Shown here: one piece after another, positions 14,079-38,100 of the stretch
How the letters are laid out: each line of letters begins with the position of its first letter
Numbering within the stretch: the first letter of the stretch is position 1
NCBI GenBank assembly: GCA_040285745.1
Contig: JAUFOR010000005.1
Coordinates: 372,001-436,000, forward strand
Direction: 5' to 3'
From: Barthelona sp. PCE
Taxonomy: Eukaryota
Length of the DNA: 64,000 nt
Program-made: the position numbers and the translations under genes
The notes under the pieces: model-generated
What the model was told of the DNA's origin: nothing
The model's input: only the letters and a program-made list of their open reading frames with translations
Databases searched by the model: none

Positions 14079-16163
14079 ATGCCTCGAAGATTAAATCATG
14101 GAGCACAGTTTAATGTCGAAGGAAAGTCATTCCAGTTTAAATGGTCTGATGATTCTCTTACCATATTGAGCAGTGAATCTAGTTCAAAGGAAGAAGAATT
14201 CATCGCCCAGGGGACTATTTTCAGCACCGCTCATGCCCAAAATGTCCCTGAATTTACTGAAGGAACTCTTTTAAAATGTTATAACTGTAATGATCTTTTT
14301 TATACATTTGGTCGTGTTAAATCGGTTGATTTCTTCCGATACTCCCATGAAACTAAAGAATTCACCCATGATTCACGTGTGAACAATTTAATCTCAAACG
14401 ACTACACCCATTGTTATTTCATCGACAGAAATACTTTTATGCATAAAAGGTCAGCAAATAGGAGCACTTTAAACATACTTGATGATACAGATAACGTGGC
14501 AGAGACTTTAGATTCTCCATTCATTTATTTAGGCTCACTCGGTCAATTTTTATTTATGAAGAATACATCATACATTGCACCGTTCAGGGTTGTTACCCAG
14601 GACAATGGAGAGAAGCAGTTTGTTGAGCTAGACCCCGTTGCTCCTAACAATGCGCATTACTATTTCGCAAATGGCGCGTCATACATGATTCTTTCTGCTT
14701 ATGTGGAGGACTTTGGTTATGAAAACTTTGTACTTACTTATTTAAAAGGTGATGAGTTCAAACCCCTTTATTTTTTGCAGTTATTTGAGTGTCTACGAAA
14801 ATGCCCTCATAACATCAAGAATATTGAACTTTTTATGCTATCTGTGGAAAGAAAAGAAGCTGTTTTCATTGGTATTATTGAAGGTAGTTATTGTATTTGC
14901 ACGATATTTAATGGTGTACTTTCATGTCATCCACTTTTAACGAACGGAAAAAAATTATTTATTCCTCAACATACCCCTGAGTTTGCTTTTGAATTTAACG
15001 CACTGCAACACATTTTAGATCAATTTTTCACAGAAAATAACAACATTTACAAATTTTCTTTTAAGGATTCATTACCATTAGAAAACTGTCTGTTTAATTT
15101 AAATTCTTTTGAAAACAATATCATTGGCGTCATCAACGATGCATTATTTTATAGATCAAAGGATTATTTTGTGATTTTTGACTTTAACAAAAATATTGTT
15201 TGGAAACAGGATTTTTTTAATGATTTCAGCAAGAAATGGAAAGAATACATCCCCTCGGTGCACCCTTTTAGCCATAATGGACTGTTTCATGTGAGAAACC
15301 GAGAGAATAATGGGTTTTTAACAAAACTACATGAATATTATTATGATTTTAATACTTTTTATTCAAAACATCCTGTTATTGCACATAAAATCACCAGTTC
15401 CCTTAATTTTTTTATTAATTGGGTGACTCCTGATGGTTTTATTCAAATCCCTCAATCAGAAAATTCGGTCTACTTCTACAAGTGGGGTGAGGTGGCACCA
15501 ACGCTGTTATGTCAACTTGAGGATGCCACAATAGTATCCAATGTACACTATTATGATAACCAGACACTTATTATTTCACAAGGTGGAGCAAAAAAAAAAC
15601 ATACTATTTTCAAGAAGATTGATAACGCCTTTATCATTACTGAGTCGTTATCGAATGATATTCGCGTTAATGCCTACAATACTGATATTCGAATCGTCTC
15701 AAAGAATGAAGGCACCGAGAAGTGGTTGTTTAACTCTGGTGACGATAGTGAATTCTTATTACCAAAGTTTGAATTTTCAACATTTATTGGTCCCCAGCTC
15801 ATGTTATGTGACGACGGAATCTACTCTATAAATGCAGATTGTTCGATTGAGAAAATAATTATTTTTAATTTTGTTGTAACTGCATGTAACTATAGTTTCT
15901 ATTTGGGTATTTTAAATGTCATCGTTCCTGATATTAGTACACGTCAGTTCCATCACATACGGTGTGAAATTGACGGTAATATTATCGTAAAGAATGAAGA
16001 TTTATCCATTGACATAGAAGATTTCTTTTTCAGTTCAGATATCCATTCTCTTGATGATATAACCGTTGTTTCTGGTAATGATGGAGCTCCATTATCTACC
16101 TACATTAGATACAATAGAAAAATTGAACAAAATGTTCATAGAGGATATCTTGTGATACAGTAA
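14079..16163 (+). CDS. Uncharacterised ~690-aa AT-rich protein, 'MPR' family member 1
   Basis: 694-aa ORF rich in F/I/N beta-strand-like segments. Start (MPRR), length and C-terminal pattern (SIDIEDFF) resemble the ORFs at 32969 and 41175. Confidence 0.7.
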   Translation: MPRRLNHGAQFNVEGKSFQFKWSDDSLTILSSESSSKEEEFIAQGTIFSTAHAQNVPEFTEGTLLKCYNCNDLFYTFGRVKSVDFFRYSHETKEFTHDSRVNNLISNDYTHCYFIDRNTFMHKRSANRSTLNILDDTDNVAETLDSPFIYLGSLGQFLFMKNTSYIAPFRVVTQDNGEKQFVELDPVAPNNAHYYFANGASYMILSAYVEDFGYENFVLTYLKGDEFKPLYFLQLFECLRKCPHNIKNIELFMLSVERKEAVFIGIIEGSYCICTIFNGVLSCHPLLTNGKKLFIPQHTPEFAFEFNALQHILDQFFTENNNIYKFSFKDSLPLENCLFNLNSFENNIIGVINDALFYRSKDYFVIFDFNKNIVWKQDFFNDFSKKWKEYIPSVHPFSHNGLFHVRNRENNGFLTKLHEYYYDFNTFYSKHPVIAHKITSSLNFFINWVTPDGFIQIPQSENSVYFYKWGEVAPTLLCQLEDATIVSNVHYYDNQTLIISQGGAKKKHTIFKKIDNAFIITESLSNDIRVNAYNTDIRIVSKNEGTEKWLFNSGDDSEFLLPKFEFSTFIGPQLMLCDDGIYSINADCSIEKIIIFNFVVTACNYSFYLGILNVIVPDISTRQFHHIRCEIDGNIIVKNEDLSIDIEDFFFSSDIHSLDDITVVSGNDGAPLSTYIRYNRKIEQNVHRGYLVIQ

Positions 16164-16730
16164 ATTTTTTTTTTTTCCCACGCATTTTTCTTAACATACT
16201 TGGATGTAAGCCATCCTTAAATAAACACACTCTAATATAAATAGTTCTATTTAGTATTTAGCAGTATAAACAGGTCACACTAGCGTTGGGTACTCGGATT
16301 CTCAGCCATTCAAGAGCATGACGTAAGACCCTGTGGGTGGTCAATGTGATCAACGGCACACCTCGTCGGCTAAAACGGCATTTCAGCCATGCACTACACA
16401 GGAGGGATTGCCGGTATGCAATATTCAGTAGCATTTATTTTCAAGCAGTGCTTTTGAGTTATATATAGTACAGTAACTGTGTGTGCGTATATGATTAAGC
16501 TGTATAAGTTAATTTAGGGGTTGTAAAATTCATTGAAAAAAAAAAAAGTTTAATTAGTAATTTTTAACTAACTGTGGGTCTCTACCGTTTGATTATACCA
16601 CTATTTTCGATATACTTAACCTCTAATTACGTGAGATGGGGGAGAAAACTGACCGGAAATTGTGAATAACCAATACGGTACTTGACACTTTGGCTTGAAC
16701 TTTTCCGTCAAACTAACAATTTGGAGTTTG

Positions 16731-16751
16731 GAGTGTGTAGCTCAGTGGTAG
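16731..16751 (+). pseudogene. tRNA-Ala 5' fragment (nt 1-21); identical copies at 18118, 19507, 20905, 22300, 23702, 25098
   Basis: GAGTGTGTAGCTCAGTGGTAG is identical to 32235-32255 but is followed by ACTCTACCTTTT instead of the tRNA body. It contains the A box only. Confidence 0.9.
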
Positions 16752-19700
16752 ACTCTACCTTTTGAAAAGTTTTGGTGGAGGCAATTTGCTACTATATGTA
16801 ATGCCCATAGAAAACTATGAACGATTATAAAGGATAGTAGGGAGATTCTTTACAGAGGTCATGGTACCGCATACGGGCTACCATCTTCAGTTTGAAAGTC
16901 ATACATCTCGTATTTCAATTACTAAGCAGTACAACTAGAATAAATAGGAAAACTGGTTATAACACCAGCATATGTTCTATTCCATTCTCTGTTCAAAATC
17001 AACTGCAAGATCTTCCTAACAGGGATACGATTGTAATGTCATGCTTGTTTATCGTATTGTTATTGGATTACAGAATGTTTTCTGAAATATTTTTTTCCTA
17101 ATCCAAATCTTCCACCAACCTCAATATGAAGTGTAACCCATTGTATAAGGCCTGTCTCCTCATTTATAAAAAAGAAAATCAAAAATGATTAATTGCCTAC
17201 TTCCAAAAAAAGTATAAATATTAGTAATTCCTGTATGAAACATTGGAAAGTTCAATTAAAAAATCTAAAACTTCAATTACGTGCGCAGTATGCCCGTGTC
17301 ACGAAAACCCGTGCTCGTCCACACTGAAACAGCCGATTTATATGCTTCAACAGCCACTGAGTTGTAGTCAAACAAGGTTGCACTGAATAAAAAATAACAG
17401 CCCAATGCCGTCCAAACTGTTGCCCTCTTCGCCAAAGTGCCCGTCCTCGCTGCTGTGATGCCCGTGGGAATTTTGAGTGATCCGTGAAAACGGTGATAAA
17501 ACAAAATGCGAAATGTTCATGCTGTGCCACTACGATGTGAGGCCCTGTTGTTGTCTTAAGGTCCGACCAGCTTGCTTAGTGCGTTTTGAGCGGGTAAATT
17601 GGTTTTCAGTACAACATGTCGATACAACGCTTTATCTATCTGTTGTTAATGTGTACTCGGATTTCCTGTTATTAATGTGTACTCAGATTTCCTGCATTCA
17701 AGAGCATGACGTAAGACCCTGTGGGTGGTCAATGTGATCAACGGCACACCTCGTCGGCTAAAACGGCATTTCAGCCATGCACTACACAGGAGGGATTGCC
17801 GGTATGCAATATTCAGTAGCATTTATTTTCAAGCAGTGCTTTTGAGTTATATATAGTACAGTAACTGTGTGTGCGTATATGATTAAGCTATATAAGTTAA
17901 TTTAGGGGTTGAAAAATTTATTGAAAAAAAAAAATGTTAATTAGTAATTTTTAACTGATTTTGGGTCTCTGCCGTTTGATTATACCACTATTTTCGATAT
18001 ACTTAACCTCTAATTACGTGAGATGGGGGAGAAAACTGACCGGAAATTGTGAATAACCAATACGGTACTTGACACTTTGGCTTGAACTTTTCCGTCAAAC
18101 TAACAATTTGGAGTTTGGAGTGTGTAGCTCAGTGGTAGACTCTACCTTTTCAAAAGTTTTGGTGGAGTTGCTACTGTTTGTAATGCCCATAGAAAACTAT
18201 GAACGATTATAAAGGATAGTAGGAGATTCTTTACAGAGATTATGGTGCCGCATATGGGCTACCATCTTCAGTTTGAAAGTCCGTACATCTCGTATTTCAA
18301 TTACTAAGCAGTACAACTAGAATAAATAGGAAAACTAGTGATAACACCAGTATATGTTCAATTCCATTCTCTGTTCAAAATCAACTGCAAGATCTTCCTA
18401 ACAGGGATACGATTGTAATGTCATGCTTGTTTATCGTATTGTTATTGGATTACAGAATGTTTTCTGAAATATTTTTTTCCTAATCCAAATCTTCCACCAA
18501 CCTCAATATGAAGTGTAACCCATTGTATAAGGCCTGTCTCCTCATTTATAAAAAAGAAAATCAAAAATGATTAATTGCCTACTTCCAAAAAAAGTATAAA
18601 TATTAGTAATTCCTGTATGAAACATTGGAAAGTTCAATTAAAAAATCTAAAACTTCAATTACGTGCGCAGTATGCCCGTGTCACGAAAACCCGTGCTCGT
18701 CCACACTGAAACAGCCGATTTATATGCTTCAACAGCCACTGAGTTGTAGTCAAACAAGGTTGCACTGAATAAAAAATAACAGCCCAATGCCGTCCAAACT
18801 GTTGCCCTCTTCGCCAAAGTGCCCGTCCTCGCTGCTGTGATGCCCGTGGGAATTTTGAGTGATCCGTGAAAACGGTGATAAAACAAAATGCGAAATGTTC
18901 ATGCTGTGCCACTACGATGTGAGGCCCTGTTGTTGTCTTAAGGTCCGACCAGCTTGCTTAGTGCGTTTTGAGCGGGTAAATTGGTTTTCAGTACAACATG
19001 TCGATACAACGCTTTATCTATCTGTTGTTAATGTGTACTCGGATTTCCTGTTATTAATGTGTACTCAGATTTCCTGCATTCAAGAGCATGACGTAAGACC
19101 CTGTGGGTGGTCAATGTGATCAACGGCACACCTCGTCGGCTAAAACGGCATTTCAGCCATGCACTACACAGGAGGGATTGCCGGTATGCAATATTCAGTA
19201 GCATTTATTTTCAAGCAGTGCTTTTGAGTTATATATAGTACAGTAACTGTGTGTGCGTATATGATTAAGCTATATAAGTTAATTTAGGGGTTGAAAAATT
19301 TATTGAAAAAAAAAATGTTAATTAGTAATTTTTAACTGATTTTGGGTCTCTGCCGTTTGATTATACCACTATTTTCGATATACTTAACCTCTAATTACGT
19401 GAGATGGGGGAGAAAACTGACCGGAAATTGTGAATAACCAATACGGTACTTGACACTTTGGCTTGAACTTTTCCGTCAAATGACCATTTTAGAGATGGTA
19501 CAGTTGGAGTGTGTAGCTCAGTGGTAGACTCTACCTTTTGAAAAGTTTTGGTGGAGGCAATTTGCTACTATATGTAATGCCCATAGAAAACTATGAACGA
19601 TTATAAAGGATAGTAGGAGATTCTTTACAGAGATCATGGTGCCGCATACGGGCTACCATCTTCAGTTTGAAAGTCCGTACATCTCGTATTTCAATTACTA

Positions 19701-22700
19701 AGCAGTACAACTAGAATAAATAGGAAAACTAGTGATAACACCAGTATATGTTCAATTCCATTCTCTGTTCAAAATCAACTGCAAGATCTTCCCTAACAGG
19801 GATACGATTGTAATGTCATGCTTGTTTATCGTATTGTTATTGGATTACAGAATGTTTTCTGAAAACATTTTTTCCAATCCAAATCTTCCACCAACCTCAA
19901 TATGAAGTGTAACCCATTGTATAAGGCCTGTCTCCTCATTTATAAAAAAGAAAATCAAAAATGATTAATTGCCTACTTCCAAAAAAAAAGTATAAATATT
20001 AGTAATTCCTGTATGAAACATTGGAAAGTTCAATTAAAAAAATCTAAAACTTCAATTACGTGCGCAGTATGCCCGTGTCACGAAAACCCGTGCTCGTCCA
20101 CACTGAAACAGCCGATTTATATGCTTCAACAGCCACTGAGTTGTAGTCAAACAAGGTTGCACTGAATAAAAAATAACAGCCCAATGCCGTCCAAACTGTT
20201 GCCCTCTTCGCCAAAGTGCCCGTCCTCGCTGCTGTGATGCCCGTGGGAATTTTGAGTGATCCGTGAAAACGGTGATAAAACAAAATGCGAAATGTTCATG
20301 CTGTGCCACTACGATGTGAGGCCCTGTTGTTGTCTTAAGGTCCGACCAGCTTGCTTAGTGCGTTTTGAGCGGGTAAATTGGTTTTCAGTACAACATGTCG
20401 ATACAACGCTTTATCTATCTGTTGTTAATGTGTACTCGGATTTCCTGTTATTAATGTGTACTCAGATTTCCTGCATTCAAGAGCATGACGTAAGACCCTG
20501 TGGGTGGTCAATGTGATCAACGGCACACCTCGTCGGCTAAAACGGCATTTCAGCCATGCACTACACAGGAGGGATTGCCGGTATGCAATATTCAGTAGCA
20601 TTTATTTTCAAGCAGTGCTTTTGAGTTATATATAGTACAGTAACTGTGTGTGCGTATATGATTAAGCTATATAAGTTAATTTAGGGGTTGAAAAATTTAT
20701 TGAAAAAAAAAAATGTTAATTAGTAATTTTTAACTGATTTTGGGTCTCTGCCGTTTGATTATACCACTATTTTCGATATACTTAACCTCTAATTACGTGA
20801 GATGGGGGAGAAAACTGACCGGAAATTGTGAATAACCAATACGGTACTTGACACTTTGGCTTGAACTTTTCCGTCAAATGACCATTTTAGAGATGGTACA
20901 GTTGGAGTGTGTAGCTCAGTGGTAGACTCTACCTTTTGAAAAGTTTTGGTGGAGGCAATTTGCTACTATATGTAATGCCCATAGAAAACTATGAACGATT
21001 ATAAAGGATAGTAGGAGATTCTTTACAGAGATCATGGTGCCGCATACGGGCTACCATCTTCAGTTTGAAAGTCCGTACATCTCGTATTTCAATTACTAAG
21101 CAGTACAACTAGAATAAATAGGAAAACTAGTGATAACACCAGTATATGTTCAATTCCATTCTCTGTTCAAAATCAACTGCAAGATCTTCCTAACAGGGAT
21201 ACGATTGTAATGTCATGCTTGTTTATCGTATTGTTATTGGATTACAGAATGTTTTCTGAAAACATTTTTTCCAATCCAAATCTTCCACCAACCTCAATAT
21301 GAAGTGTAACCCATTGTATAAGGCCTGTCTCCTCATTTATAAAAAAGAAAATCAAAAATGATTAATTGCCTACTTCCAAAAAAAGTATAAATATTAGTAA
21401 TTCCTGTATGAAACATTGGAAAGTTCAATTAAAAAATCTAAAACTTCAATTACGTGCGCAGTATGCCCGTGTCACGAAAACCCGTGCTCGTCCACACTGA
21501 AACAGCCGATTTATATGCTTCAACAGCCACTGAGTTGTAGTCAAACAAGGTTGCACTGAATAAAAAATAACAGCCCAATGCCGTCCAAACTGTTGCCCTC
21601 TTCGCCAAAGTGCCCGTCCTCGCTGCTGTGATGCCCGTGGGAATTTTGAGTGATCCGTGAAAACGGTGATAAAACAAAATGCGAAATGTTCATGCTGTGC
21701 CACTACGATGTGAGGCCCTGTTGTTGTCTTAAGGTCCGACCAGCTTGCTTAGTGCGTTTTGAGCGGGTAAATTGGTTTTCAGTACAACATGTCGATACAA
21801 CGCTTTATCTATCTGTTGTTAATGTGTACTCGGATTTCCTGTTATTAATGTGTACTCAGATTTCCTGCATTCAAGAGCATGACGTAAGACCCTGTGGGTG
21901 GTCAATGTGATCAACGGCACACCTCGTCGGCTAAAACGGCATTTCAGCCATGCACTACACAGGAGGGATTGCCGGTATGCAATATTCAGTAGCATTTATT
22001 TTCAAGCAGTGCTTTTGAGTTATATATAGTACAGTAACTGTGTGTGCGTATATGATTAAGCTATATAAGTTAATTTAGGGGTTGAAAAATTTATTGAAAA
22101 AAAAAAATGTTAATTAGTAATTTTTAACTGATTTTTGGGTCTCTGCCGTTTGATTATACCACTATTTTCGATATACTTAACCTCTAATTACGTGAGATGG
22201 GGGAGAAAACTGACCGGAAATTGTGAATAACCAATACGGTACTTGACACTTTGGCTTGAACTTTTCCGTCAAATGACCATTTTAGAGATGGTACAGTTGG
22301 AGTGTGTAGCTCAGTGGTAGACTCTACCTTTTGAAAAGTTTTGGTGGAGGCAATTTGCTACTATATGTAATGCCCATAGAAAACTATGAACGATTATAAA
22401 GGATAGTAGGAGATTCTTTACAGAGATCATGGTGCCGCATACGGGCTACCATCTTCAGTTTGAAAGTCCGTACATCTCGTATTTCAATTACTAAGCAGTA
22501 CAACTAGAATAAATAGGAAAACTAGTGATAACACCAGTATATGTTCAATTCCATTCTCTGTTCAAAATCAACTGCAAGATCTTCCTAACAGGGATACGAT
22601 TGTAATGTCATGCTTGTTTATCGTATTGTTATTGGATTACAGAATGTTTTCTGAAAACATTTTTTCCAATCCAAATCTTCCACCAACCTCAATATGAAGT

Positions 22701-25118
22701 GTAACCCATTGTATAAGGCCTGTCTCCTCATTTATAAAAAAAAGAAAAAAAATAAAAAATGATTAATTGCCTACTTCCAAAAAAAAAGTATAAATATTAG
22801 TAATTCCTGTATGAAACATTGGAAAGTTCAATTAAAAAAATCTAAAACTTCAATTACGTGCGCAGTATGCCCGTGTCACGAAAACCCGTGCTCGTCCACA
22901 CTGAAACAGCCGATTTATATGCTTCAACAGCCACTGAGTTGTAGTCAAACAAGGTTGCACTGAATAAAAAATAACAGCCCAATGCCGTCCAAACTGTTGC
23001 CCTCTTCGCCAAAGTGCCCGTCCTCGCTGCTGTGATGCCCGTGGGAATTTTGAGTGATCCGTGAAAACGGTGATAAAACAAAATGCGAAATGTTCATGCT
23101 GTGCCACTACGATGTGAGGCCCTGTTGTTGTCTTAAGGTCCGACCAGCTTGCTTAGTGCGTTTTGAGCGGGTAAATTGGTTTTCAGTACAACATGTCGAT
23201 ACAACGCTTTATCTATCTGTTGTTAATGTGTACTCGGATTTCCTGTTATTAATGTGTACTCAGATTTCCTGCATTCAAGAGCATGACGTAAGACCCTGTG
23301 GGTGGTCAATGTGATCAACGGCACACCTCGTCGGCTAAAACGGCATTTCAGCCATGCACTACACAGGAGGGATTGCCGGTATGCAATATTCAGTAGCATT
23401 TATTTTCAAGCAGTGCTTTTGAGTTATATATAGTACAGTAACTGTGTGTGCGTATATGATTAAGCTATATAAGTTAATTTAGGGGTTGAAAAATTTATTG
23501 AAAAAAAAAATGTTAATTAGTAATTTTTAACTGATTTTGGGTCTCTGCCGTTTGATTATACCACTATTTTCGATATACTTAACCTCTAATTACGTGAGAT
23601 GGGGGAGAAAACTGACCGGAAATTGTGAATAACCAATACGGTACTTGACACTTTGGCTTGAACTTTTCCGTCAAATGACCATTTTAGAGATGGTACAGTT
23701 GGAGTGTGTAGCTCAGTGGTAGACTCTACCTTTTGAAAAGTTTTGGTGGAGGCAATTTGCTACTATATGTAATGCCCATAGAAAACTATGAACGATTATA
23801 AAGGATAGTAGGAGATTCTTTACAGAGATCATGGTGCCGCATACGGGCTACCATCTTCAGTTTGAAAGTCCGTACATCTCGTATTTCAATTACTAAGCAG
23901 TACAACTAGAATAAATAGGAAAACTAGTGATAACACCAGTATATGTTCAATTCCATTCTCTGTTCAAAATCAACTGCAAGATCTTCCTAACAGGGATACG
24001 ATTGTAATGTCATGCTTGTTTATCGTATTGTTATTGGATTACAGAATGTTTTCTGAAAACATTTTTTCCAATCCAAATCTTCCACCAACCTCAATATGAA
24101 GTGTAACCCATTGTATAAGGCCTGTCTCCTCATTTATAAAAAAAAAAAAATCAAAAATGATTAATTGCCTACTTCCAAAAAAAGTATAAATATTAGTAAT
24201 TCCTGTATGAAACATTGGAAAGTTCAATTAAAAAATCTAAAACTTCAATTACGTGCGCAGTATGCCCGTGTCACGAAAACCCGTGCTCGTCCACACTGAA
24301 ACAGCCGATTTATATGCTTCAACAGCCACTGAGTTGTAGTCAAACAAGGTTGCACTGAATAAAAAATAACAGCCCAATGCCGTCCAAACTGTTGCCCTCT
24401 TCGCCAAAGTGCCCGTCCTCGCTGCTGTGATGCCCGTGGGAATTTTGAGTGATCCGTGAAAACGGTGATAAAACAAAATGCGAAATGTTCATGCTGTGCC
24501 ACTACGATGTGAGGCCCTGTTGTTGTCTTAAGGTCCGACCAGCTTGCTTAGTGCGTTTTGAGCGGGTAAATTGGTTTTCAGTACAACATGTCGATACAAC
24601 GCTTTATCTATCTGTTGTTAATGTGTACTCGGATTTCCTGTTATTAATGTGTACTCAGATTTCCTGCATTCAAGAGCATGACGTAAGACCCTGTGGGTGG
24701 TCAATGTGATCAACGGCACACCTCGTCGGCTAAAACGGCATTTCAGCCATGCACTACACAGGAGGGATTGCCGGTATGCAATATTCAGTAGCATTTATTT
24801 TCAAGCAGTGCTTTTGAGTTATATATAGTACAGTAACTGTGTGTGCGTATATGATTAAGCTATATAAGTTAATTTAGGGGTTGAAAAATTTATTGAAAAA
24901 AAAAAATGTTAATTAGTAATTTTTAACTGATTTTGGGTCTCTGCCGTTTGATTATACCACTATTTTCGATATACTTAACCTCTAATTACGTGAGATGGAC
25001 GAGAAAACTGACCGGAAATTGTGAATAACCAATACGGTACTTGACACTTTGGCTTGAACTTTTCCGTCAAATGACCATTTTAGAGATGGTACAGTTGGAG
25101 TGTGTAGCTCAGTGGTAG
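16752..25118. mobile_element. Six head-to-tail non-autonomous derivatives of the 7.1-kb element (16752-18138, 18139-19527, 19528-20925, 20926-22320, 22321-23722, 23723-25118)
   Basis: Each unit shares its left ~770 bp almost identically with 25119-25888, a further ~100 bp in diverged form with ~26000-26100, and its right ~200 bp in diverged form with 32056-32255. No long ORF. Confidence 0.72.
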
Positions 25119-26168
25119 ACTCTACCTTTTGAAAAGTTTTGGTGGAGGCAATTTGCTACTATATGTAATGCCCATAGAAAACTATGAACGATTATAAAGG
25201 ATAGTAGGGAGATTCTTTACAGAGGTCATGGTACCGCATACGGGCTACCATCTTCAGTTTGAAAGTCATACATCTCGTATTTCAATTACTAAGCAGTACA
25301 ACTAGAATAAATAGGAAAACTGGTTATAACACCAGCATATGTTCTATTCCATTCTCTGTTCAAAATCAACTGCAAGATCTTCCTAACAGGGATACGATTG
25401 TAATGTCATGCTTGTTTATCGTATTGTTATTGGATTACAGAATGTTTTCTGAAATATTTTTTTCCTAATCCAAATCTTCCACCAACCTCAATATGAAGTG
25501 TAACCCATTGTATAAGGCCTGTCTCCTCATTTATAAAAAAGAAAATCAAAAATGATTAATTGCCTACTTCCAAAAAAAGTATAAATATTAGTAATTCCTG
25601 TATGAAACATTGGAAAGTTCAATTAAAAAATCTAAAACTTCAATTACGTGCGCAGTATGCCCGTGTCACGAAAACCCGTGCTCGTCCACACTGAAACAGC
25701 CGATTTATATGCTTCAACAGCCACTGAGTTGTAGTCAAACAAGGTTGCACTGAATAAAAAATAACAGCCCAATGCCGTCCAAACTGTTGCCCTCTTCGCC
25801 AAAGTGCCCGTCCTCGCTGCTGTGATGCCCGTGGGAATTTTGAGTGATCCGTGAAAACGGTGATAAAACAAAATGCGAAATGTTCATGTTATTTCTTTGT
25901 TCTCCTGTAATGACTGCTGTACTGTTGTTTAAGCTACTAATTTGACGGTTCCGACTGTATGTTTATGGTACGAAACATCCTTTTTCGAAGTGAATACTGT
26001 AACACTACGATATGATGCTTTGTGGGTGGCTTAAAGGTTTTGAAGGTCCGACTAACTTGATTAGTGTGTTTACAGCGGGGTAAATTGGTTTTCATTACAA
26101 AAACCTGTCTTCATATTTTCTTACTCTATTCCATTTTTGGTCTAGTTCTGATAGTTTATTCTGATAGC

Positions 26169-27557
26169 ATGACTGAAATGCGTGAACAAAACACTATGGA
26201 ATCGTCTATAAATGAAGATAGAAAAAATTCTGTATCAAATAGTTACTCGAGAATGGCTTCTAACCATGATTCTCCAGGTTACGGAATACGTAAGAAACTT
26301 TCTGCCTCTGTTGTTGATCAACGTCTTGAGTTAGGTGACTTGGTTCGGCAAACTTGCGAGAAGGAGAATGAGGAGTTATTTGATTCACTACCTTCTGATC
26401 GTTTTGATGAAAGTCTTGATCTTGAACGCATCCACGTGCGCATACGTAGGCATCATTCGGTGACAGGTAAGTATCTTAGTACTGCTCTTATTTCTGAACC
26501 CACTGATACTGAAATCCGCGAACGTTTTCTCCAACGTTTCATAACTCCTTCTGCCAATCCCTTTGTCATTCACACTGCTGAACTTGCCATGTGTTACGAC
26601 GAGTTTCCTGTGGGTACCACGTGCAGTGATGGTGAGTTTCATCCAGTTGCTGAAGCTGAGCATCCAGCTCTCACCGTCATCCGTGATATTGTCGGCGATG
26701 TAAGATATGGGGATGTCACTCCTGCTATGTGCTATACGATGTTACATTCGTATTTGTCTTCCGATGAAGTGAAGCAGGTGTTGAAGATTACGTTGCTCAG
26801 AAAATCAAAAGGATTCAGGGTTAGTCTCAGAAATTCTAACGATTCGACTAATCTGTGTTTCGTGGACTTCAAGCATGACAAGGAATCTGATCACTTGGAA
26901 ATGGCCCTTCGTTTTGGTAAGCTTACTGTAGACTTTGACATCATCAAGCGTAAACTTGAAGACCATGTCAATATGCGTACACTCTCTGGCAGTTACACGT
27001 TTGAATATTTATGTCAGACAATTGCTGTCATGCGTCTTCTGGCTCCTGACAAGGCTAAGTACAAAAAGAACAGTTTCCATGAGCTTTTTATGAAGCCATG
27101 TGGACATTACAGTTCTGCGTTTGATTGTACTGGTGATGATGTCGATCGTCACAAGTACATTGGGTTTTTATTACTTATGCTAACTGGTTTGGAGAAGTTC
27201 TGCATCAACAGCGGTATTGTTCACTGTGATGTTGAGACGAATTCTGTTTGTCCTAGTACTGGAGGACAATTTTTTGTCACAACAACCTCTTCTAAGAATG
27301 AAGATGATGTTCGTGTTCTCACCATCAAGACTAGAAGTGCTCTTATTGCTATCCGTACAGGGAATTTACTGTATTTGTTTGATAAGAGCAAACCATTGAG
27401 ATCATGTTTTAAAGATTGCCATGGTCATAACCCGGAGTATCCACATCCTATGATTTGTGGAACATGCTGCAATTTCTATCCTACTATTGATGGTTACGGG
27501 GCGTCGTCTACTTCTGGTATGATGGTGCCTACGTTTATGGTTACCCAAAGTAAATGA
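26169..27557 (+). CDS. Transposon accessory/cargo protein of unknown function, with a kinase-like catalytic-loop remnant
   Basis: 462 aa from ATG 26169 (track start 26064 is GTG). Contains LLLMLTGLEKFCINSGIVHCDVETN, reminiscent of kinase alphaE-HxD, and a Cys/His-rich C-terminus (CFKDCHGH..CGTCC). Confidence 0.65.
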   Translation: MTEMREQNTMESSINEDRKNSVSNSYSRMASNHDSPGYGIRKKLSASVVDQRLELGDLVRQTCEKENEELFDSLPSDRFDESLDLERIHVRIRRHHSVTGKYLSTALISEPTDTEIRERFLQRFITPSANPFVIHTAELAMCYDEFPVGTTCSDGEFHPVAEAEHPALTVIRDIVGDVRYGDVTPAMCYTMLHSYLSSDEVKQVLKITLLRKSKGFRVSLRNSNDSTNLCFVDFKHDKESDHLEMALRFGKLTVDFDIIKRKLEDHVNMRTLSGSYTFEYLCQTIAVMRLLAPDKAKYKKNSFHELFMKPCGHYSSAFDCTGDDVDRHKYIGFLLLMLTGLEKFCINSGIVHCDVETNSVCPSTGGQFFVTTTSSKNEDDVRVLTIKTRSALIAIRTGNLLYLFDKSKPLRSCFKDCHGHNPEYPHPMICGTCCNFYPTIDGYGASSTSGMMVPTFMVTQSK

Positions 27558-27630
27558 TTCTGCAATAATGTGTATTCACTACTCTTACCACAAAGCTAAG
27601 ATAAAATAGGTTTTTATTATTGTTTGTTAA

Positions 27631-30600
27631 TCAACTATCGGTTCTCTGAATCTTAAAACCGCTGCGTTCCCCTATAGTGCGTTTAACGGGGATTCCATTT
27701 ATGCACAAAAAGATGTACTGCTTAAGGGAAAAAGTAAATCCTCCAAAATCAAGCATTGTTCTGATTACGTTGTCTACGATTCCAGTTTTGGTCAACATAC
27801 CGGGAACGGTCACATTGTCGATTGTAAAGAATTCATAACCAATGGCAGTTAGCTTGAAATAATATGCAATATCTCTCAATCGCGTTAGCTTCGATGTTTC
27901 TTTGCACGTGTACTGCATAATACTATGCGCAATAACAACTTGAGGTGCCATACGAGAGAAATCCTTAATTCCTAGTGTCTGTGGACGATTAATCAATCTG
28001 GAAACTTCTGCAGAGCGCAATCCAATAGGAAAAATGGGATCGGCATTCATAAGATCAATAAATTCTTGGTGCCTGAGCGGATCGAATCGTAACCCACGAC
28101 AGGCCATAACAGCTGCAGCATCCGGCTGAAAATCGGAATCATGTTGAAGTAGCCATGCAACACGTTGTTGGATATCACTTAGTGAACGATTTCCACAGTT
28201 GAGGTTAGTCCAGCACTTGTGAATGTGGCTGGGAAAGGCATCATCTGACGCATCTGGATGTTTAACCTGAAGAAAATCCAAAGCCATAGCAACAAAACGA
28301 TTGAGCAACAAATCATCAGTATAGCTACTATCGACGTTACTGTAGACATCAGTATCAGAAGCAAAAGTTTCGGCGAGAGGTTTGTGCAACTGAATCAGGT
28401 TTTCAAAAGAAACAGACGTGATGTTAACTCTTTCACCCTTTCGAACAAGTTTGTTCCACTGCTCTGTCTTCTTCTTAAACAATCCATCACCCGAAGCATC
28501 GAAATTGTCCTTAGCTTGCTTCAGTGTCATGATTTCATTCCATTTACGTGTAAAATGTTCAAAGGAGCAAATCTTACCAGAGGACATTCTTGAAGAGATG
28601 AGATCTGTTAAGTGAAAGGCCATGTGCAAATTAGTATTCTTACCAAGAAACTTCATTATGTTAGCTGCTATTGAAGGAACAAGGACGGTATTATATTCGA
28701 TGGAGTAACTGATCTGGCCTAAATATGGTTTGGATACTGAGTAAGGCTTCAGCAGTGTGTGGAGAACTTTATCTACTGCTACAAAACGAATATCAAGATT
28801 GGCTAGAGTTCCGTGCACACGGTTCTTTCTTGTGAATATCAACTTGAATTCAATTGGAGATGGTAATAAATGAGAACCTAAAAAGGGGAGAGTAATCTCG
28901 CAGCCAGAACCAACCTTAAACATAAATTCCTTACTGGCACCAATAACGTTTAGACGACAAACGTCAACAGCAACATCACCCTCGTCAATAAAAACGGTAG
29001 AAACAACCTCAGATCTAGTATTATCAACAGCAACATTGAAAACCGTATACTCAGTGTCATCCAACAAAAAAGAGCCATTCAACTGTAAAATATGCATATC
29101 GTGACATATGGAAACAGAGTTTAAAGTCTTACTAAGAACTTTGGAAACCCCATTGTCGCGTAATCTTTTTCTGGATGCTATAACTCGATCAAAATTACAC
29201 ATCAAACCTTGTTTTTTAAAAACTGAAAGCATACTGTCAATCATCGCCTTTCTCAAATACTCTTTAGCGTAATCGTCAACTTCTAAGACAGAAGCTTCAA
29301 AACGAGTTGTATTAAGAAGAAAATTACCATTAATAAAGCTAAAGACAGTCTCTTGAGGATCGGAAGTGATCATAACATCGTCATTGATGTCGTAATTTGT
29401 GAGAAATATCGTGGCTCTACCAACTTTAAAAGCTAGAAAAGGAATATGAGAATAATGCAGCTTGAACAAAACATCTTCTGTCAAACAATGAGTACAATTA
29501 CCAAAGAAGCGGTCAACGGGATAACCAGATGCAATGAGATCCTTTGAAGTAGGGAAGATATCAGGAAGAGCAGGGAGAATACGAATAAGATTGGTACTAT
29601 CAAAGAACTCTTGAGCTTTGTCTAAAGCACGAAATGCAACATGTCTGGGAATATCCTTCCATTTTGTATCGTACCTAAGCAAGCAATCAACAACAGAAAA
29701 ACGAAACAACTTGAGAAGATCAGAAAACCAACCCATTGCAGTCTTAATGACTGAATCAGTCACTGAACATGAAATACTAGATTTAACAATCCTGTTCCTG
29801 TTTCTGGTCTCAAAAACAAAGCCCTGTCTATTTCCATCAACGAAAAGTGGTTCATAGTTCTTATCAAAAAGTTCACTCAACTGTGTGAATGCAGTATTAC
29901 GATCTGTACTGTCCTTGATGACATTATAATGAAAAGTAAGCAAAGAATGGAAGAACTGGGAGATTAAATTCAAGAATGCATATTGTTCTCCACTTAATGA
30001 CATCTCTTCAATAAACCTACCACAGTTAGCTAGATACTTAAAGTGGACAATGTTTTGCGTTTGTGAACTCTTGACTTCTGTGCTACCACCAAAAACTATC
30101 TTGGATGCAAAACCTTTCTTTAGCACATCAGTCATTGTATCTAAAGCTTTGGAAGGCTTGAGACTCCGGAAACGAGTAATTAGTAGCTCCTCAAATGATT
30201 GAAAACGAGCTAGGATTTCCTGAGTCAAAGGAGAATTCATATCAGCTGCTCTTGGATTAAAATCCTTAGAAATTTCGCCTGAAGGCTTCATCAAATCAAA
30301 TAGATCAGCACCGGTAAACTCGCTATGTATTGATATGAATGAAAAAATATCTCTTAATAAACGATAAAATAACCTCTTGTCAAAAAGAAACAAAAGAATG
30401 GACTGGATTGAATGTAAACGTATCATAGTGGTGAGAAAAGCCTCATTAAAGTGATCATTCGAGGTGATATCGGCATAACTAACATCCTTAAACAGTGTGA
30501 GAAAGTCAGTTTCATTGAGAACATAATCTTTAATACTATCTTCATCTTCCTTTACCTCGACGTTTCTGCTGACGAAATGATCCAGTTCATTTATCTTAAG

Positions 30601-31493
30601 TTTGCCAATTAAATCGACTGTCCATGAAAGAAGACTGACAACAACATGCATCAATGATTGTTTGGCATCACTTAACCCGGATAAGGAAGCAAACAGTGTT
30701 CTGAGGTCTATCTGTTTGTCTAAACGCTCAATCAACTGCGTAGATGTTAAAGAACTCAGATCACTCTGTGAATAAAAAATACCTGAATTCAAAAACGCAT
30801 GACTGATACACGCATGTGGATAAACGTTCGCTTTAAGTGGTTCTGTCATGATATCGGGGACGTCTTTACCTTCGAATAACAAAGGAAAAACTAAACTGTA
30901 ACGACGACAGATGAGCTTAATATTCTCGATAAATCCATCTTTAAAGCTGTTCATTTGGGTTAAAAACAAAATGTTTGCAGCACAACCGTCCAAAGAGACA
31001 GTAATCTTGGCATTAACTTTGTTAAAATGAAAAAAATCAAGCATAAAACGAAAAGCAACCCATAAGTGGTCAGCAGAGGTAGTTTCTATTGGGAAAAACC
31101 AGATAGGATATGAAAAAACTGTATCCTCATCGGCGTCTTCTCTTGGCCGCCAATCCGCAATTGAAAAATCAGGATATCTCTGATTAAAAGCAACCAATAA
31201 AGACTTTTTGACCATAATTGTAGCACCTACGTAATGATTAAAGCCTTTAGAAGTGCCATCAAACGTTAAGCTAATGTCCTTGTTTTCGGATATGAGGTAC
31301 TCTGACAATTTGCGAATACCATGAGCGGGTGTGCGTAAGAACTTCGCTATGTCGGCGTATCTCCGGTCCTCTATGCACTGCTTGAGATCAAAACGCTGGA
31401 AATCTACTGAGTGTTAGTTAAAAAAAAGGGTATGAAAATTTAAATACCTTGTTCCCCGTTAAGATACCTGGGAACTGTTTCACGTTGTTGCAT
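27631..31493 (-). CDS. DDE-type transposase-like protein (hAT/Dada/MULE/P/Kolobok CxxH clade), probably spliced, ~1273 aa
   Basis: RNase H-like motifs in the expected order: DISLTFDGTS..YVGATI (D at 31258-60), TTSADHL..KITVSLDGCAANI (D at 30988-90), HACISHAFLN (CxxH at 30799-30810). The track ORF starts at TTG 31308. The frame stays open to 31406, and a 41-nt GT-AG intron joins it in frame to ATG 31493. The third catalytic E was not identified. Confidence 0.72.
31407..31447 (-). other. Spliceosomal intron (41 nt) in the transposase gene
   Basis: Minus strand reads CAAG|GTATTT...TTTTTA ACTAACACTCAG|TAGATT. Removing it eliminates the in-frame TAA at 31414-16 and restores frame to ATG 31493. 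Confidence 0.75.
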
Positions 31494-32234
31494 AAGAGCT
31501 TTTCCAAAGAAGAATATATAAAAAACTAAGGGAAAGAAGATGAAAAAACTGAAAACAGGGTTCTTACCTGTTGTGACTAACGCATCTTTCCTCTGTTATT
31601 TTGTGTAAAACGTGCACATCGGTGACCCCCGAACAACAGAATAGCTTGAAATACATAACCATACATTCAGAAATGTTCTATGCCCACATGACAGTAAAAG
31701 TGTCCTTTCGCAAGCATTTAGTGTGTAACCCGAGACATGATACCCGATAAAGGTGTGTAAAAATATAAAAATACGTTCTTAGTAGTAAGTTTTTTGAAAA
31801 AGATTTACGTGCGTGCGGTGCTCGTTTACACCCGTAGACATTTGAAAAACTAGTACCATTCTAATCCCTAAATGGTTCTTATAAACTAATCATGAAACCA
31901 TTAAACGTGAAAAATTAAAATACACACACATACGTTCTATTCCCCTAAATTATCTCACAATCTATTTATGTATGAATGTACATTAGTGGTATGGCCCAAA
32001 TCAAGTTTATTTTAAACTAAGAACAATTATTAAATTTCTTTAAAAATATGAAAACTAATTAGTAATTTTTAATCGATTGTGAGTCTTTATCGTTTGATTG
32101 TACCACTATTTTCAACATACTTAACCTTTAATTACGTTAAATGGGGGAGAAAACTAACCATTAATTGTGAATAACCAATACGATACTTGACATTTTCGTT
32201 AACGCTTTTCCGTCAAAGAACCATTTTAGGGTTT

Positions 32235-32307
32235 GAGTGTGTAGCTCAGTGGTAGTAGCGCGTCGTTAGCATCGACGAGGCCGGGAGTTCGATTCTTCTC
32301 ACATTCA
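32235..32307 (+). tRNA. tRNA-Ala(AGC)
   Basis: Acceptor stem GAGTGTG/CACATTC with G3:U70 (Ala identity), anticodon arm CGTCG-TTAGCAT-CGACG, T arm GGGAG-TTCGATT-CTTCT, discriminator A. The D arm has an atypical extra T (GGTAGTAGC). Confidence 0.93.
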
Positions 32308-32312
32308 TTTTT
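32308..32312 (+). terminator. RNA polymerase III terminator (T5)
   Basis: TTTTT immediately follows the tRNA discriminator base. Confidence 0.75.
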
Positions 32313-35114: not shown

Positions 35115-38100
35115 TCACTGGAATTGACTCATTCTCTCATTCACTTCATTAAGAGTCAGCTCCTGCACCGCTGCAACGTCGCACTGGCCATAATGTCCGC
35201 AGTCAGGCGCCAAACACGAGAAGCAGAATTCGCGAGTACACGTGAAGCACTTCATGCTCTTGCACGCACCACCATGTTCGATGGGTGTCAGGCAGCTCGG
35301 GCATACACGGACAGATGGAACGTCATCGATCTCATTGAAATCAATTCTTTTCAATGGCGCATTCTTCAGACGATTGTTGAGCTCGTCAACATCCTTCTGC
35401 GTCCACTGCGAGAGGCGTTGCATGATTAAAAGCTTGAACTCGTTCGGGAGAATGCCGCGGATGGCGAGCGGCAATCCCTCTCGCACACGCAAAACACTGT
35501 TCGGTAACCTCAAAGTTCGGTCACAAAGAGCTACTGAGGGTAGCATGGTGTCGTCAGGCTGAAGAATGACGGTGAACGAGTTTAGTTCAGGCGAGCCGTT
35601 CATCCAATAGACGAATTGCAGCATATCAAGTGAGTTGAAACCTTCCAACACCTCCTTTAGAGCATCATGTATTTCAGAGGGTACTTCATCGCTGAAGGCA
35701 AAAGTAACAAGTACCTGCTCAGCCGTGAAGCGTGGAGGACCGCAAATAAGGTTCTTCACTTCATTAAATGTGAGTGTAACGTCCAATTGTACATTGAGCT
35801 CAAACGAATTGAACTTCGTGTTCACCTTTTTTGACAGTTCAGCCCACGGTTCGGATGCCGATTCGCGTGCAAATTTCAAAAACTCATTAATGTTATCTGA
35901 AGTTACGGGTATGTCTTCACCACCGATGAAGTTGAAGTTCAGGCCTTCGTGCTTCAGCATGTTGCTGATGTACGCCGACTCGGTCGGGAACACCCTGTTG
36001 AAGACAATTGCATCGGAAAGCTTGTTGTAATCTGCGCTGAGCGCATTCAGTAAGAACTGACCGACTTGTATGTCATCAACGGGCGATTGGAGCACAAAGC
36101 AGCAGTACAGGAAGCCGCACACGGCCTCGATGAGATCATCTGATGCATTGGTATCGAAGTGGAGAAAGGAGCGATACTCAAAAACGTGATCAGCAAACTG
36201 AGCAATTGAGAGCTTCTCCATGCCATGCATCGTAATCGAAGCGCCGAAATATTCAGCGCCGCTCATGAACGTGCTGGTATCGGTGAACACATTCACGAAC
36301 AGCTCATCGAAGGACTCAGTGGTTTGCTCGAACTCCATTGTGCTTCCATCATGTTCGTTGTCGCGCAGCAGTGCCTGTTTAGCAACGATAAACTGGTTGA
36401 TCTGGGTACGTATGAGTGTGAGGCGTTCCTGTGTAGCTGGTACACTTTTATGCCAATTATATAAGCTGAGTTTGTGAGCTGAAGGTCTCAACTGAGTATC
36501 TTGGGCTCGGCAAAGCTGTAGAATTTCAGTATGAGCGCAGTCATCGCGTAATGCAAGAGCGTTGGCGTCTTGTGCAAAAATGTATGAAATTGTCTCTCCC
36601 AAAGCATAAATGTCGCTCAAGAAATTATCAGCAGATTCATGTTCAAAGTTACCAGTTTCAGTAATGTAGTCTCTAGAAATACTGGATTTGAAGTTCCCTA
36701 GTTTTAGTATTGGATTTGTTCCGCCACCACCACAATATATAAAAACATTTTCAGGATTGAGTTCGCATAAAACAATATTATTGGAATGCATAATGGAAAC
36801 AGCTATCACAAGCTGATGGGCCAAATAATTTCTTTCTTCAGCATTAATGTTCGGAAATGCACTTAAATACTGCACAAGATCGTAATTTGCGCGTTCAAGC
36901 TCAATACAGACGAAATTAATAGGAGAGGTAGGATCCCTCATTGTTTTAGGAACTAGAACTACATTCTTGAGTGTTACAGTACTCGGATACAGTTTCGATA
37001 AAACATGAAGCTCTCTTCGTAATGTTCTAAGGTTTATATCCATATTACCTTCGAACTCATCAGATACACATATGCATTTGATAAGACGGTCATCTTTCAC
37101 CACTCTTTGATTTTTTGAGCAGTTTTCGAGTTGACCATTCATGTAACTATCAAGACCAATGATTTTTGGATTCAGTGGGAATCTAATAGAAGACAGATGT
37201 AGCATGTTTAGCGTTCTTCTGAGGTTAACAAAAACGGAAAGTTCATTGATTGTTAAGTTTAGAAGGTTTAGTTTTTCCTCTATTCTTTTTTTTAATTTAA
37301 AAATTTCCCCCTCAAAATGCACACATTCACACGCTATTAAACGTGAATAGTGTTGATCTAACTGTTTTCGAAGCTCGTTGAGTTGATCTAATGTGAATGG
37401 AATTTCTTCTTCTCGAGTTATTGCACTTCTCACACTGTTACACATTTGTATTGTTTGTTCATTTTGTTTTTCTAAATCACTATGAGTGTTGATGAGTAAT
37501 TTCACTGTTTGCTGAATATAATCTGCTTCTTTCCCTCTAAAACTTTGAAGGCATTTCTTGAATGTTTCAAAGTAAATGTCTAACTCTTTGAATTCTTCAA
37601 GTTTTTTAGCATAAGATTTCTCATTTGCTATTTTAGCAATGGGTGACTGATTGGTAATCTCTGTAAAACGTGATTCAAATGTTGAACTTAACGTATCCTT
37701 CAAATTAAAAGCTCTTGATATTCTAGTAATTTCCTTGACATAGTTTGTGACCATAACCAGTTCATTCATGTTCATATTCATTGTCTGAATGGTTGGCTTG
37801 GACAAAAACCACTCAAAAAAGCTGTCAGTTGGAATTTCAAGATTGAGTATTGCCCTTGCACATTGGGTAGCTTGTGAGATCAATGCACAGTACTTTTGCT
37901 TACCTGTATTGGGTGCAATTTTAAGCAGTTCATCATATACAATCCGGAACTTCTCATTCATAACTAAATTTTCTTCAACGAGTTTAATATTCTTTTTTTC
38001 AAGAATACTGAATTTGGATTTGTATTCAATTCGTTGATCGTCCATACTTTTTTCTTTCTTTTTCTGTTCCTTCAACATGTTATTAATGATTTTTTTGAAT

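Follow-up and report, generated by a model that had tools for sequence, protein, structure and literature searches.

How a single tRNA gene comes to stand behind seven truncated copies of its own first 21 nucleotides (nt), and whether a mobile element brought them there, is the question raised by a locus of Barthelona sp. PCE, a free-living anaerobic metamonad whose 10.2-Mb genome is described, in the available text of PMC11316075, as a Nanopore assembly with Illumina polishing. The window analyzed here is a 64,000-nt stretch of contig JAUFOR010000005.1 (assembly GCA_040285745.1, positions 372,001 to 436,000, forward strand), and the repeat array it holds lies inside that 766,953-bp contig. 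We put the probability at about one in two that the array represents a low-copy DNA element lodged in a tRNA-Ala gene, which carries its own copy of the tRNA upstream region (U') together with tRNA nt 1-21, encodes an RNase H-like protein in its second open reading frame (ORF2), and is accompanied by a locally amplified derivative. In more general terms, what we see at the locus is probably a new DNA element associated with a tRNA gene, together with a non-coding derivative that was amplified on the spot.

A tRNA-Ala gene at the end of a head-to-tail array

The only tRNA gene that ARAGORN detects in the window is an intact tRNA-Ala(AGC), with the G3:U70 pair present and a T5 terminator behind the gene; its sole non-standard pair is C13-U22, and nt 22 (T, window 32256) is the first base past the junction described below. 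Nucleotides 1-21 are found eight times in the window, where TAGCTCAGTGGTAG has eight occurrences on the + strand. Seven of the eight copies break at the identical base and continue with ACTCTACC, and the eighth, at 32235, runs on into the whole tRNA-Ala(AGC), so that motif counts and alignment confirm what the first-pass annotation of this window had reported: eight copies, seven of them cut alike and one intact. The motif ACTCTACCTTTTGAAAAG occurs seven times with at most two mismatches (at 16752, 18139, 19528, 20926, 22321, 23723 and 25119), against a chance expectation of none in 100 shuffles. The resulting units measure, from left to right, 1387, 1389, 1398, 1395, 1402, 1396 and 7137 bp, which are the six ~1.39-kb units and one 7.1-kb unit originally proposed, and the left edge of homology at 16287 agrees with the array start first placed at 16290. 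Long and short units also share their ends as had been claimed, the first 770 bp being common to them at 97-100% identity (100% with U1) and the last ~224 bp at 81-85%; a further 58-bp piece is common at 86%. The parts of the array are as follows.

16287..16751, + strand: partial unit forming the left flank, made of upstream-type sequence U (type A, 444 bp) and then tRNA nt 1-21 at 16731-16751
16752..25118, + strand: short units U1-U6, head-to-tail and non-coding, starting at 16752, 18139, 19528, 20926, 22321 and 23723
Within each of U1-U6, + strand: ~925 bp of element leader, a 26-bp repeat present twice, 444 bp of U and tRNA nt 1-21
25119..32255, + strand: long unit of 7137 bp, composed of leader, ORF1, ORF2, a 538-bp spacer, U' and tRNA nt 1-21
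32032..32234, + strand: U', the upstream region of the intact tRNA, homologous to the final ~203 bp of U, both in the short units and in the left flank
32235..32307, + strand: intact tRNA-Ala(AGC), the sole tRNA in the window by ARAGORN, at 52.1 bits in Rfam (gathering score 29)

A long direct repeat ending inside the tRNA gene

Every unit ends at its 3' side in 224-465 bp of tRNA upstream sequence followed by nt 1-21, and a remnant of tRNA nt 22-73 was found in no unit (best local alignment scores of 16-20, against 17-22 for 30 shuffled queries). Because the units end in upstream sequence and lack the tRNA 3' half, the inserts are flanked by a long direct repeat and not by a 6-7 bp target duplication: the true structure is direct repeat, insert, direct repeat and rest of the tRNA, where the repeat comprises the upstream region plus nt 1-21. 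The junction-to-junction register in which the units were first described is one of several that are equally valid for a tandem array. In the long unit, nt 1-21 and upstream sequence lie on both sides, with the whole tRNA on the right.

From 16287 on, the sequence preceding the first junction is almost the same as the 3' part of the short units (U), and this left flank aligns to short-unit positions 926-1396 at 94% identity, with homology beginning at GTACTCGGATT, 123 bp past the stop codon of the upstream ORF (14079-16163). U' and U, by comparison, are homologous only over the last ~224 bp including nt 1-21 (81-85%), with a sudden stop at TAATTAGTAATTTTTAA, and the variants just upstream of the tRNA are reticulate, falling into types A, B and U'. 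Gene conversion among the copies is indicated by these variants and by the unequal identity of long and short units at their two ends, and it explains the pattern only in part.

The break falls at nt 21/22, the D-loop/D-stem boundary. The A-box target first proposed is therefore right in that the feature lies in the tRNA-Ala gene, and has to be corrected in that the break is just 3' of the A box, not inside it. Across every junction, ACTCTACC and the preceding tRNA nucleotides form a 6-1-6 palindrome (GGTAGA-C-TCTACC), the TCTACC at element nt 3-8 being the inverse of the junction-spanning GGTAGA, and a second, 5-1-5 palindrome, CTTTTGAAAAG (CTTTT(G/C)AAAAG), comes after it. As side observations, the D-loop of the tRNA has one extra base; U2 alone (window 18151) has C instead of G at the center of CTTTTGAAAAG, whereby the site equals its own reverse complement; and, 17 nt beyond this site, 5 bp (GCAAT) are missing from the same unit.

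Leader and genes of the long unit

The long unit contains the following features.

25119..26168, + strand: 5' non-coding leader, opening with ACTCTACC
25625..25888, + strand: invariant, G+C-richer segment of 264 bp within the leader, identical in 7 of 7 copies (alignment columns 520-783)
26169..27557, + strand: ORF1, an orphan of 462 amino acids (aa), with a C-terminal Cys/His cluster, C413...C434
27631..31493, - strand: ORF2, 100% identical to the annotated NCBI protein PCE1_002635, 1272 aa, with exon 1 at 31493-31448, an intron at ~31447-31404 and exon 2 running to the stop at 27631

Around the invariant 264-bp segment the leader varies between copies, and within the segment stand four GCCCGT motifs on the same strand, in two pairs, at a density of 4 per 1050 bp of leader vs. 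0.08 per kb in the rest of the window; they are candidate protein-binding repeats. The segment holds no ORF, and its RNA folding (z of +1.2 on both strands) shows no excess over shuffles.

In agreement with the two-gene long unit and ~1270-aa protein first described, ORF1 and ORF2 encode 462 and 1272 aa. They are convergent, with 73 bp between their stops. The Cys/His cluster of ORF1 (residues 413-434, CFKDCHGHNPEYPHPMICGTCC) could, judging by its residues, bind zinc. ORF2 has a G+C content like that of the host and an intron of spliceosomal type (44 nt, GT..AG, after codon 15, the branch site resembling ACTAAC). Another copy of ORF2 (PCE1_004586), on a contig of 1.33 Mb, agrees with it at 1213 of 1275 positions and has three in-frame indels and no stop; the same contig also carries a protein 100% identical to the last 175 aa of ORF1, only these 175 aa being annotated there. 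Because PCE1_004586 and the ORF1-identical protein share one contig, the gene pair is present at least twice, with the frame kept in both ORF2 copies. The 175-aa stretch of ORF1 is 100% identical between copies although those of ORF2 differ by 5%.

Apart from its 95% identical second copy, ORF2 is an orphan. It matched no Pfam family at E ≤ 1 (residues 1-302: none at E ≤ 10), no NCBIfam or PHROGs family and, in a sequence search of the PDB at E ≤ 10, no structure; a word-indexed search with the whole protein, and with residues 40-300 at E ≤ 10, returned only the self-match, and phmmer against 1.84 billion representatives returned ORF2 itself and one spurious repeat protein. The latter (P0003) was rejected as a relative: it is a bacterial-type immunoglobulin-repeat protein, and six identical repeats in it inflate the E-value. 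Neither ORF2 nor the 22-nt junction matched anything in the metagenomes scanned, and a scan of viral contigs gave no match to ORF1 or ORF2. ORF1 matched nothing in Pfam, NCBIfam or PHROGs, and the word-indexed protein search gave only ORF1 itself.

The N-terminal region of ORF2

The first-pass annotation had called ORF2 a transposase-like protein of the D..D..CxxH kind. The motif is indeed present, as D64 (TFDGTS), D154 (SLDGCAAN) and C214ISH217, all conserved in both copies, and C214xxH217, 60 residues past D154, is the only CxxH in the 1272 aa; a regex scan gave no P-loop motif. AlphaFold models were made without an alignment. That of 520 aa was discarded as unusable (predicted local distance difference test, pLDDT, of 37), and that of 231 aa has a mean pLDDT of 45, with 50-78 over its first 110 residues. 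This low-confidence model follows the order b1-b2-b3-a1-b4-a2 and places D64 in strand 1 and D154 directly past strand 4, positions that the first two catalytic residues canonically occupy in RNase H-like enzymes. A Foldseek search with the 231-aa model gave no significant match (best E 0.037), and a VIA search likewise none. Among the 46 Foldseek rows, 35 carry titles that we take to denote RNase H-like folds (RNase H, Hermes, retroviral integrases, Mos1 and IS110-type recombinases). A language-model feature search, run twice, returned P-element RNaseH_N, ZBED1 RNase-like and DUF659 clusters at 0.80-0.87, scores that count as leads only.

The structural check that the first-pass annotation had named thus gives a placement of D64 and D154 as in RNase H-like proteins, in a low-confidence model, and no significant fold match; the N-terminus is compatible with the transposase-like label, for which the support from model and features is weak. 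On the predicted fold and the feature leads we regard it as likely, at somewhat better than even odds, that ORF2 has an RNase H-like DDE (Asp-Asp-Glu) core, and the case for ORF2 as a transposase as suggestive.

The order D (strand 1), D (past strand 4) and CxxH is common to ORF2 and to hAT, P-element/THAP9 and Kolobok transposases, and Hermes is among the weak fold matches. The marks of the hAT superfamily are a dimerization domain, a BED finger, an 8-bp duplication and short terminal inverted repeats (TIRs). In Pfam and the end scans, no dimerization domain, BED finger, TIRs or 8-bp duplication was seen, and the gap between the second D and CxxH is shorter in hAT than the 60 residues of ORF2. 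Of P-element/THAP9 features, ORF2 shows no Pfam RNaseH_N, GTP-binding insertion domain or THAP finger.

Origin of the short units

The short unit follows the leader of the long unit to ~70 bp before the start of ORF1, with a ~115-bp deletion, and past the leader switches via the doubled 26-bp repeat into 444 bp that end in nt 1-21. The 26-bp motif, CTGTTATTAATGTGTACTCAGATTTC, stands twice in tandem at the boundary between leader and upstream-type sequence (17640-17694, and at the same place in each short unit), and this repeat may be a scar left by the formation of the short unit. It was also observed that homology to the left flank begins, at GTACTCGGATT, inside this motif. The non-leader part of the short unit coincides exactly with the 465-bp stretch homologous to the native left flank, as would be expected of a short unit that arose at this locus from left flank, nt 1-21 and leader. 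Neither an ATG-started ORF nor a stop-to-stop frame of more than 100 aa is found in the short units, and a search of Rfam at E ≤ 1 with one unit and the leader gave no match.

Substitutions between units number 0-3 among U3-U6, 9-12 for U2 and 17-20 for U1, with neighbors most alike; many of the differences are homopolymer lengths, and there are also 5-bp and 8-bp indels. The leader copies at the edges, those of U1 and the long unit, are 100% identical over 770 bp, the inner units carry a second leader haplotype, and U2 is a mosaic, a distribution that reads as the usual picture of an array homogenized by unequal exchange. Because the array begins mid-unit, at 16287, and because adjoining units are most alike, local tandem amplification is favored over repeated insertion, and a single derivative that was born locally and then amplified would be a simpler source of the six 1.39-kb units than six insertions. 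Unequal recombination and re-entry of excised circles predict the same array. The repeated insertions of the first account are accordingly not supported, each unit having upstream sequence and nt 1-21 and lacking the tRNA 3' half, and the similarity gradient fitting amplification. From its picture of an autonomous element with deletion derivatives there remains a long two-gene unit with short non-coding relatives; the independent insertion of the latter is not supported.

Proposed mechanism and points that weigh against it

In light of these results, we propose that a ~7.1-kb element with two convergent orphan genes would have become lodged at nt 21/22 of tRNA-Ala(AGC). To judge by the anatomy, its 3' end would consist of its own ~200 bp of tRNA-Ala upstream sequence (U') and nt 1-21. 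Insertion would then leave on the left the native upstream region and a dead 21-nt stub, ending in a hairpin-like palindrome and TTTT, and on the right would join the upstream region and nt 1-21 of the element to native nt 22-73, giving a complete gene. ORF2 would most likely, on weak evidence, supply an N-terminal RNase H-like DDE core of the CxxH type known from hAT, P, Kolobok, MULE and Dada elements, and ORF1 might, speculatively, act as a DNA-binding helper. The short derivative would consist of the leader joined to nt 1-21 and the tRNA upstream sequence of this locus, amplified by unequal recombination or by re-entry of circles. DDE cut-and-paste is favored over the integration of a circle because of the protein leads.

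A wider claim, that we face a new superfamily of eukaryotic DNA elements which home to a tRNA gene and rebuild their target at every insertion with a replacement 5' segment and control region, is put forward tentatively, with the odds rather against it. The same tentativeness applies to the analogy by which such a superfamily might be the mirror image of the bacterial tRNA-targeting island strategy, driven by an orphan RNase H-like enzyme in a 10-Mb protist genome with no tRNA genes to spare.

Several results weigh against the tRNA-lodged element. Inverted repeats of at least 30 nt are absent, as is any 8-9 nt terminal repeat at the element ends, which bears out the TIR-less character first ascribed to the family; no short target duplication is definable within the 224-465 bp flanking repeat; and the 10 9-mers common to both end regions are no excess over shuffles (mean 5.3, maximum 12). 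No third catalytic (acidic) residue of ORF2 was identified, and all of the protein evidence is weak, with no sequence-family matches. The identity of 97-100% in the leader, set against 81-85% in the 3' parts, is odd for simple deletion derivatives. Two neighboring tRNA-Ala genes with deletions could give the same picture; this would need a deletion exactly at nt 21 and a second such deletion for the short unit. It is also important to note that a single assembled locus underlies everything said here on target specificity, on whether the short units are mobile, on U' as part of the element and on array length.

Possible circle integration and prokaryotic tRNA-targeting elements

The anatomy is exactly that of an insert between two direct repeats, the repeat terminating within the gene, and it could be read to mean that ORF2, or ORF1 and ORF2 together, is a new site-specific recombinase, that the U' + nt 1-21 attachment site of a circular element recombines with the tRNA gene, and that repeated integration gives rise to arrays. 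Head-to-tail units and junction palindromes agree with such an origin, as does the short unit, which is a circular permutation of left flank and leader. What makes this explanation unlikely is the protein: no tyrosine or serine recombinase family was found for ORF1 or ORF2 in Pfam, NCBIfam or PHROGs, and the weak fold and feature leads favor RNase H-like transposases.

tRNA-targeting islands usually carry the 3' part of their target gene. Unlike prokaryotic integrative elements, the element proposed here has a eukaryotic host, and the piece it carries is the 5' part with ~200 bp of upstream DNA. It resembles the prokaryotic integrative elements that target tRNA genes or the 5' end of dusA (dusA integrases: PMC4482086) and bring a replacement for part of their target, in that a direct repeat whose end lies within the gene flanks the insert, one side retains an intact gene, and tandem arrays can form. 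Literature keyword searches found no eukaryotic element that restores its tRNA target, which is not proof of absence.

Dada elements

A further explanation is the one first proposed, in which a Dada-type TIR-less DDE family would comprise an autonomous 7.1-kb element and six derivatives resembling miniature inverted-repeat transposable elements, each inserted independently at the same site. Dada elements have no TIRs, insert in tRNA genes, occur in protists (Perkinsus) and can lie in tandem (PMC3706591). They share with the element described here, as far as its one locus shows, a single fixed base of a tRNA gene, and also the lack of TIRs and a short inverted repeat at the element end that recurs in the target; a protein of more than 1000 aa, encoded opposite to the target gene, with a D..D..C/DxxH motif whose catalytic role in ORF2 is putative; and a length within 4.7-11 kb, occurrence in protists, relatives with internal deletions and, at times, copies in tandem. 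The junction is alike in 7 of 7 units, D..D..CxxH is present, and the 6-nt inverted repeat that links the element start to the tRNA D-loop resembles the sub-terminal repeats of Dada.

The points of difference are nonetheless several. All Dada transposases have been reported with N-terminal CCCC and C-terminal CCHC zinc fingers (PMC3706591). In ORF2, no N-terminal CCCC finger was found, the 63 residues before the first D holding one Cys, nor a C-terminal CCHC finger, the only CxxC being the mid-protein C652THC, which the second copy lacks. The catalytic motif of ORF2 stands at its extreme N-terminus (D64), vs. mid-protein D567 in Dada-U6_DR. Dada has two tRNA hot spots, nt 8-13 or the anticodon region (section 4.2 of PMC8869645), and tandem Dada copies are separated by a 6-bp duplication only (PMC3706591); here, by contrast, the break falls between nt 21 and nt 22, neighboring units have 21 nt and 224-465 bp of upstream sequence between them (a direct repeat of at least 224 bp that includes the upstream region), and there is a second gene. 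Among the 1.84 billion representatives no relative was found, and both the left-flank boundary and the similarity gradient favor local amplification.

Since the zinc fingers are missing, the break site differs, the catalytic motif is N-terminal and the spacing between units is different, membership in Dada is not established. The kinship initially suggested is not supported, given that the database searches showed no sequence similarity to anything but the second copy, both zinc fingers are missing and the break lies outside both hot spots; six independent insertions of a Dada-type family are, in our judgment, improbable.

Duplication or assembly as alternatives

Without any mobile element, segmental or tandem duplication around a tRNA-Ala cluster with two orphan host genes might have built the locus, the second copy being a segmental duplicate. 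Orphans are common in this setting (6 of 7 neighboring genes have no Pfam family), the composition equals that of the host, neither ORF has a known relative, and the short units fit unequal crossing-over. Such a history would require at least two separate deletions, each taking away the tRNA 3' half exactly at nt 21, and would leave the palindromic junction and the RNase H-like leads unexplained; the insert, moreover, amounts to 15.5 kb in a gene-dense genome, and the gene pair is also present on a second contig. We therefore rate duplication alone as a poor prospect.

That the array or its copy number is an artefact of Nanopore assembly, as the type of assembly and the many homopolymer-length differences between units might suggest, is very improbable, because ordered substitutions and 5-bp and 8-bp indels are not created by collapse or over-expansion and the array is interior to a 767-kb contig.

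Significance of a possible target-rebuilding element

In the available text of PMC3706591 and PMC8869645, strict targeting of small-RNA genes is reported for no DNA transposons other than Dada elements, whose tolerance is explained there by the hundreds of target copies in fish genomes. Disruption of a tRNA gene should cost more in the gene-dense, 10.2-Mb genome of Barthelona sp. PCE. If our preferred reading is true, an element equipped with a front end and upstream region of its own for the tRNA gene would be a second eukaryotic solution to the problem of target damage and a natural example of site-specific, gene-sparing insertion. Because it has no detectable relatives, ORF2 may also broaden the spectrum of RNase H-like transposases or recombinases described so far. 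Should the second locus differ in its anatomy, the finding would shrink to a local duplication around an orphan gene pair.

Genes around the array

The ORFs that flank the array show no paralogy to one another. Across window positions 8803-45195, six of the seven neighboring ORFs (359-1305 aa) have no Pfam family at E ≤ 0.001, and the sole neighbor with Pfam matches, at 35115-39032, shows weak kinase and IBR matches. Genes lie close together in the same region, separated by tens to a few hundred bp.

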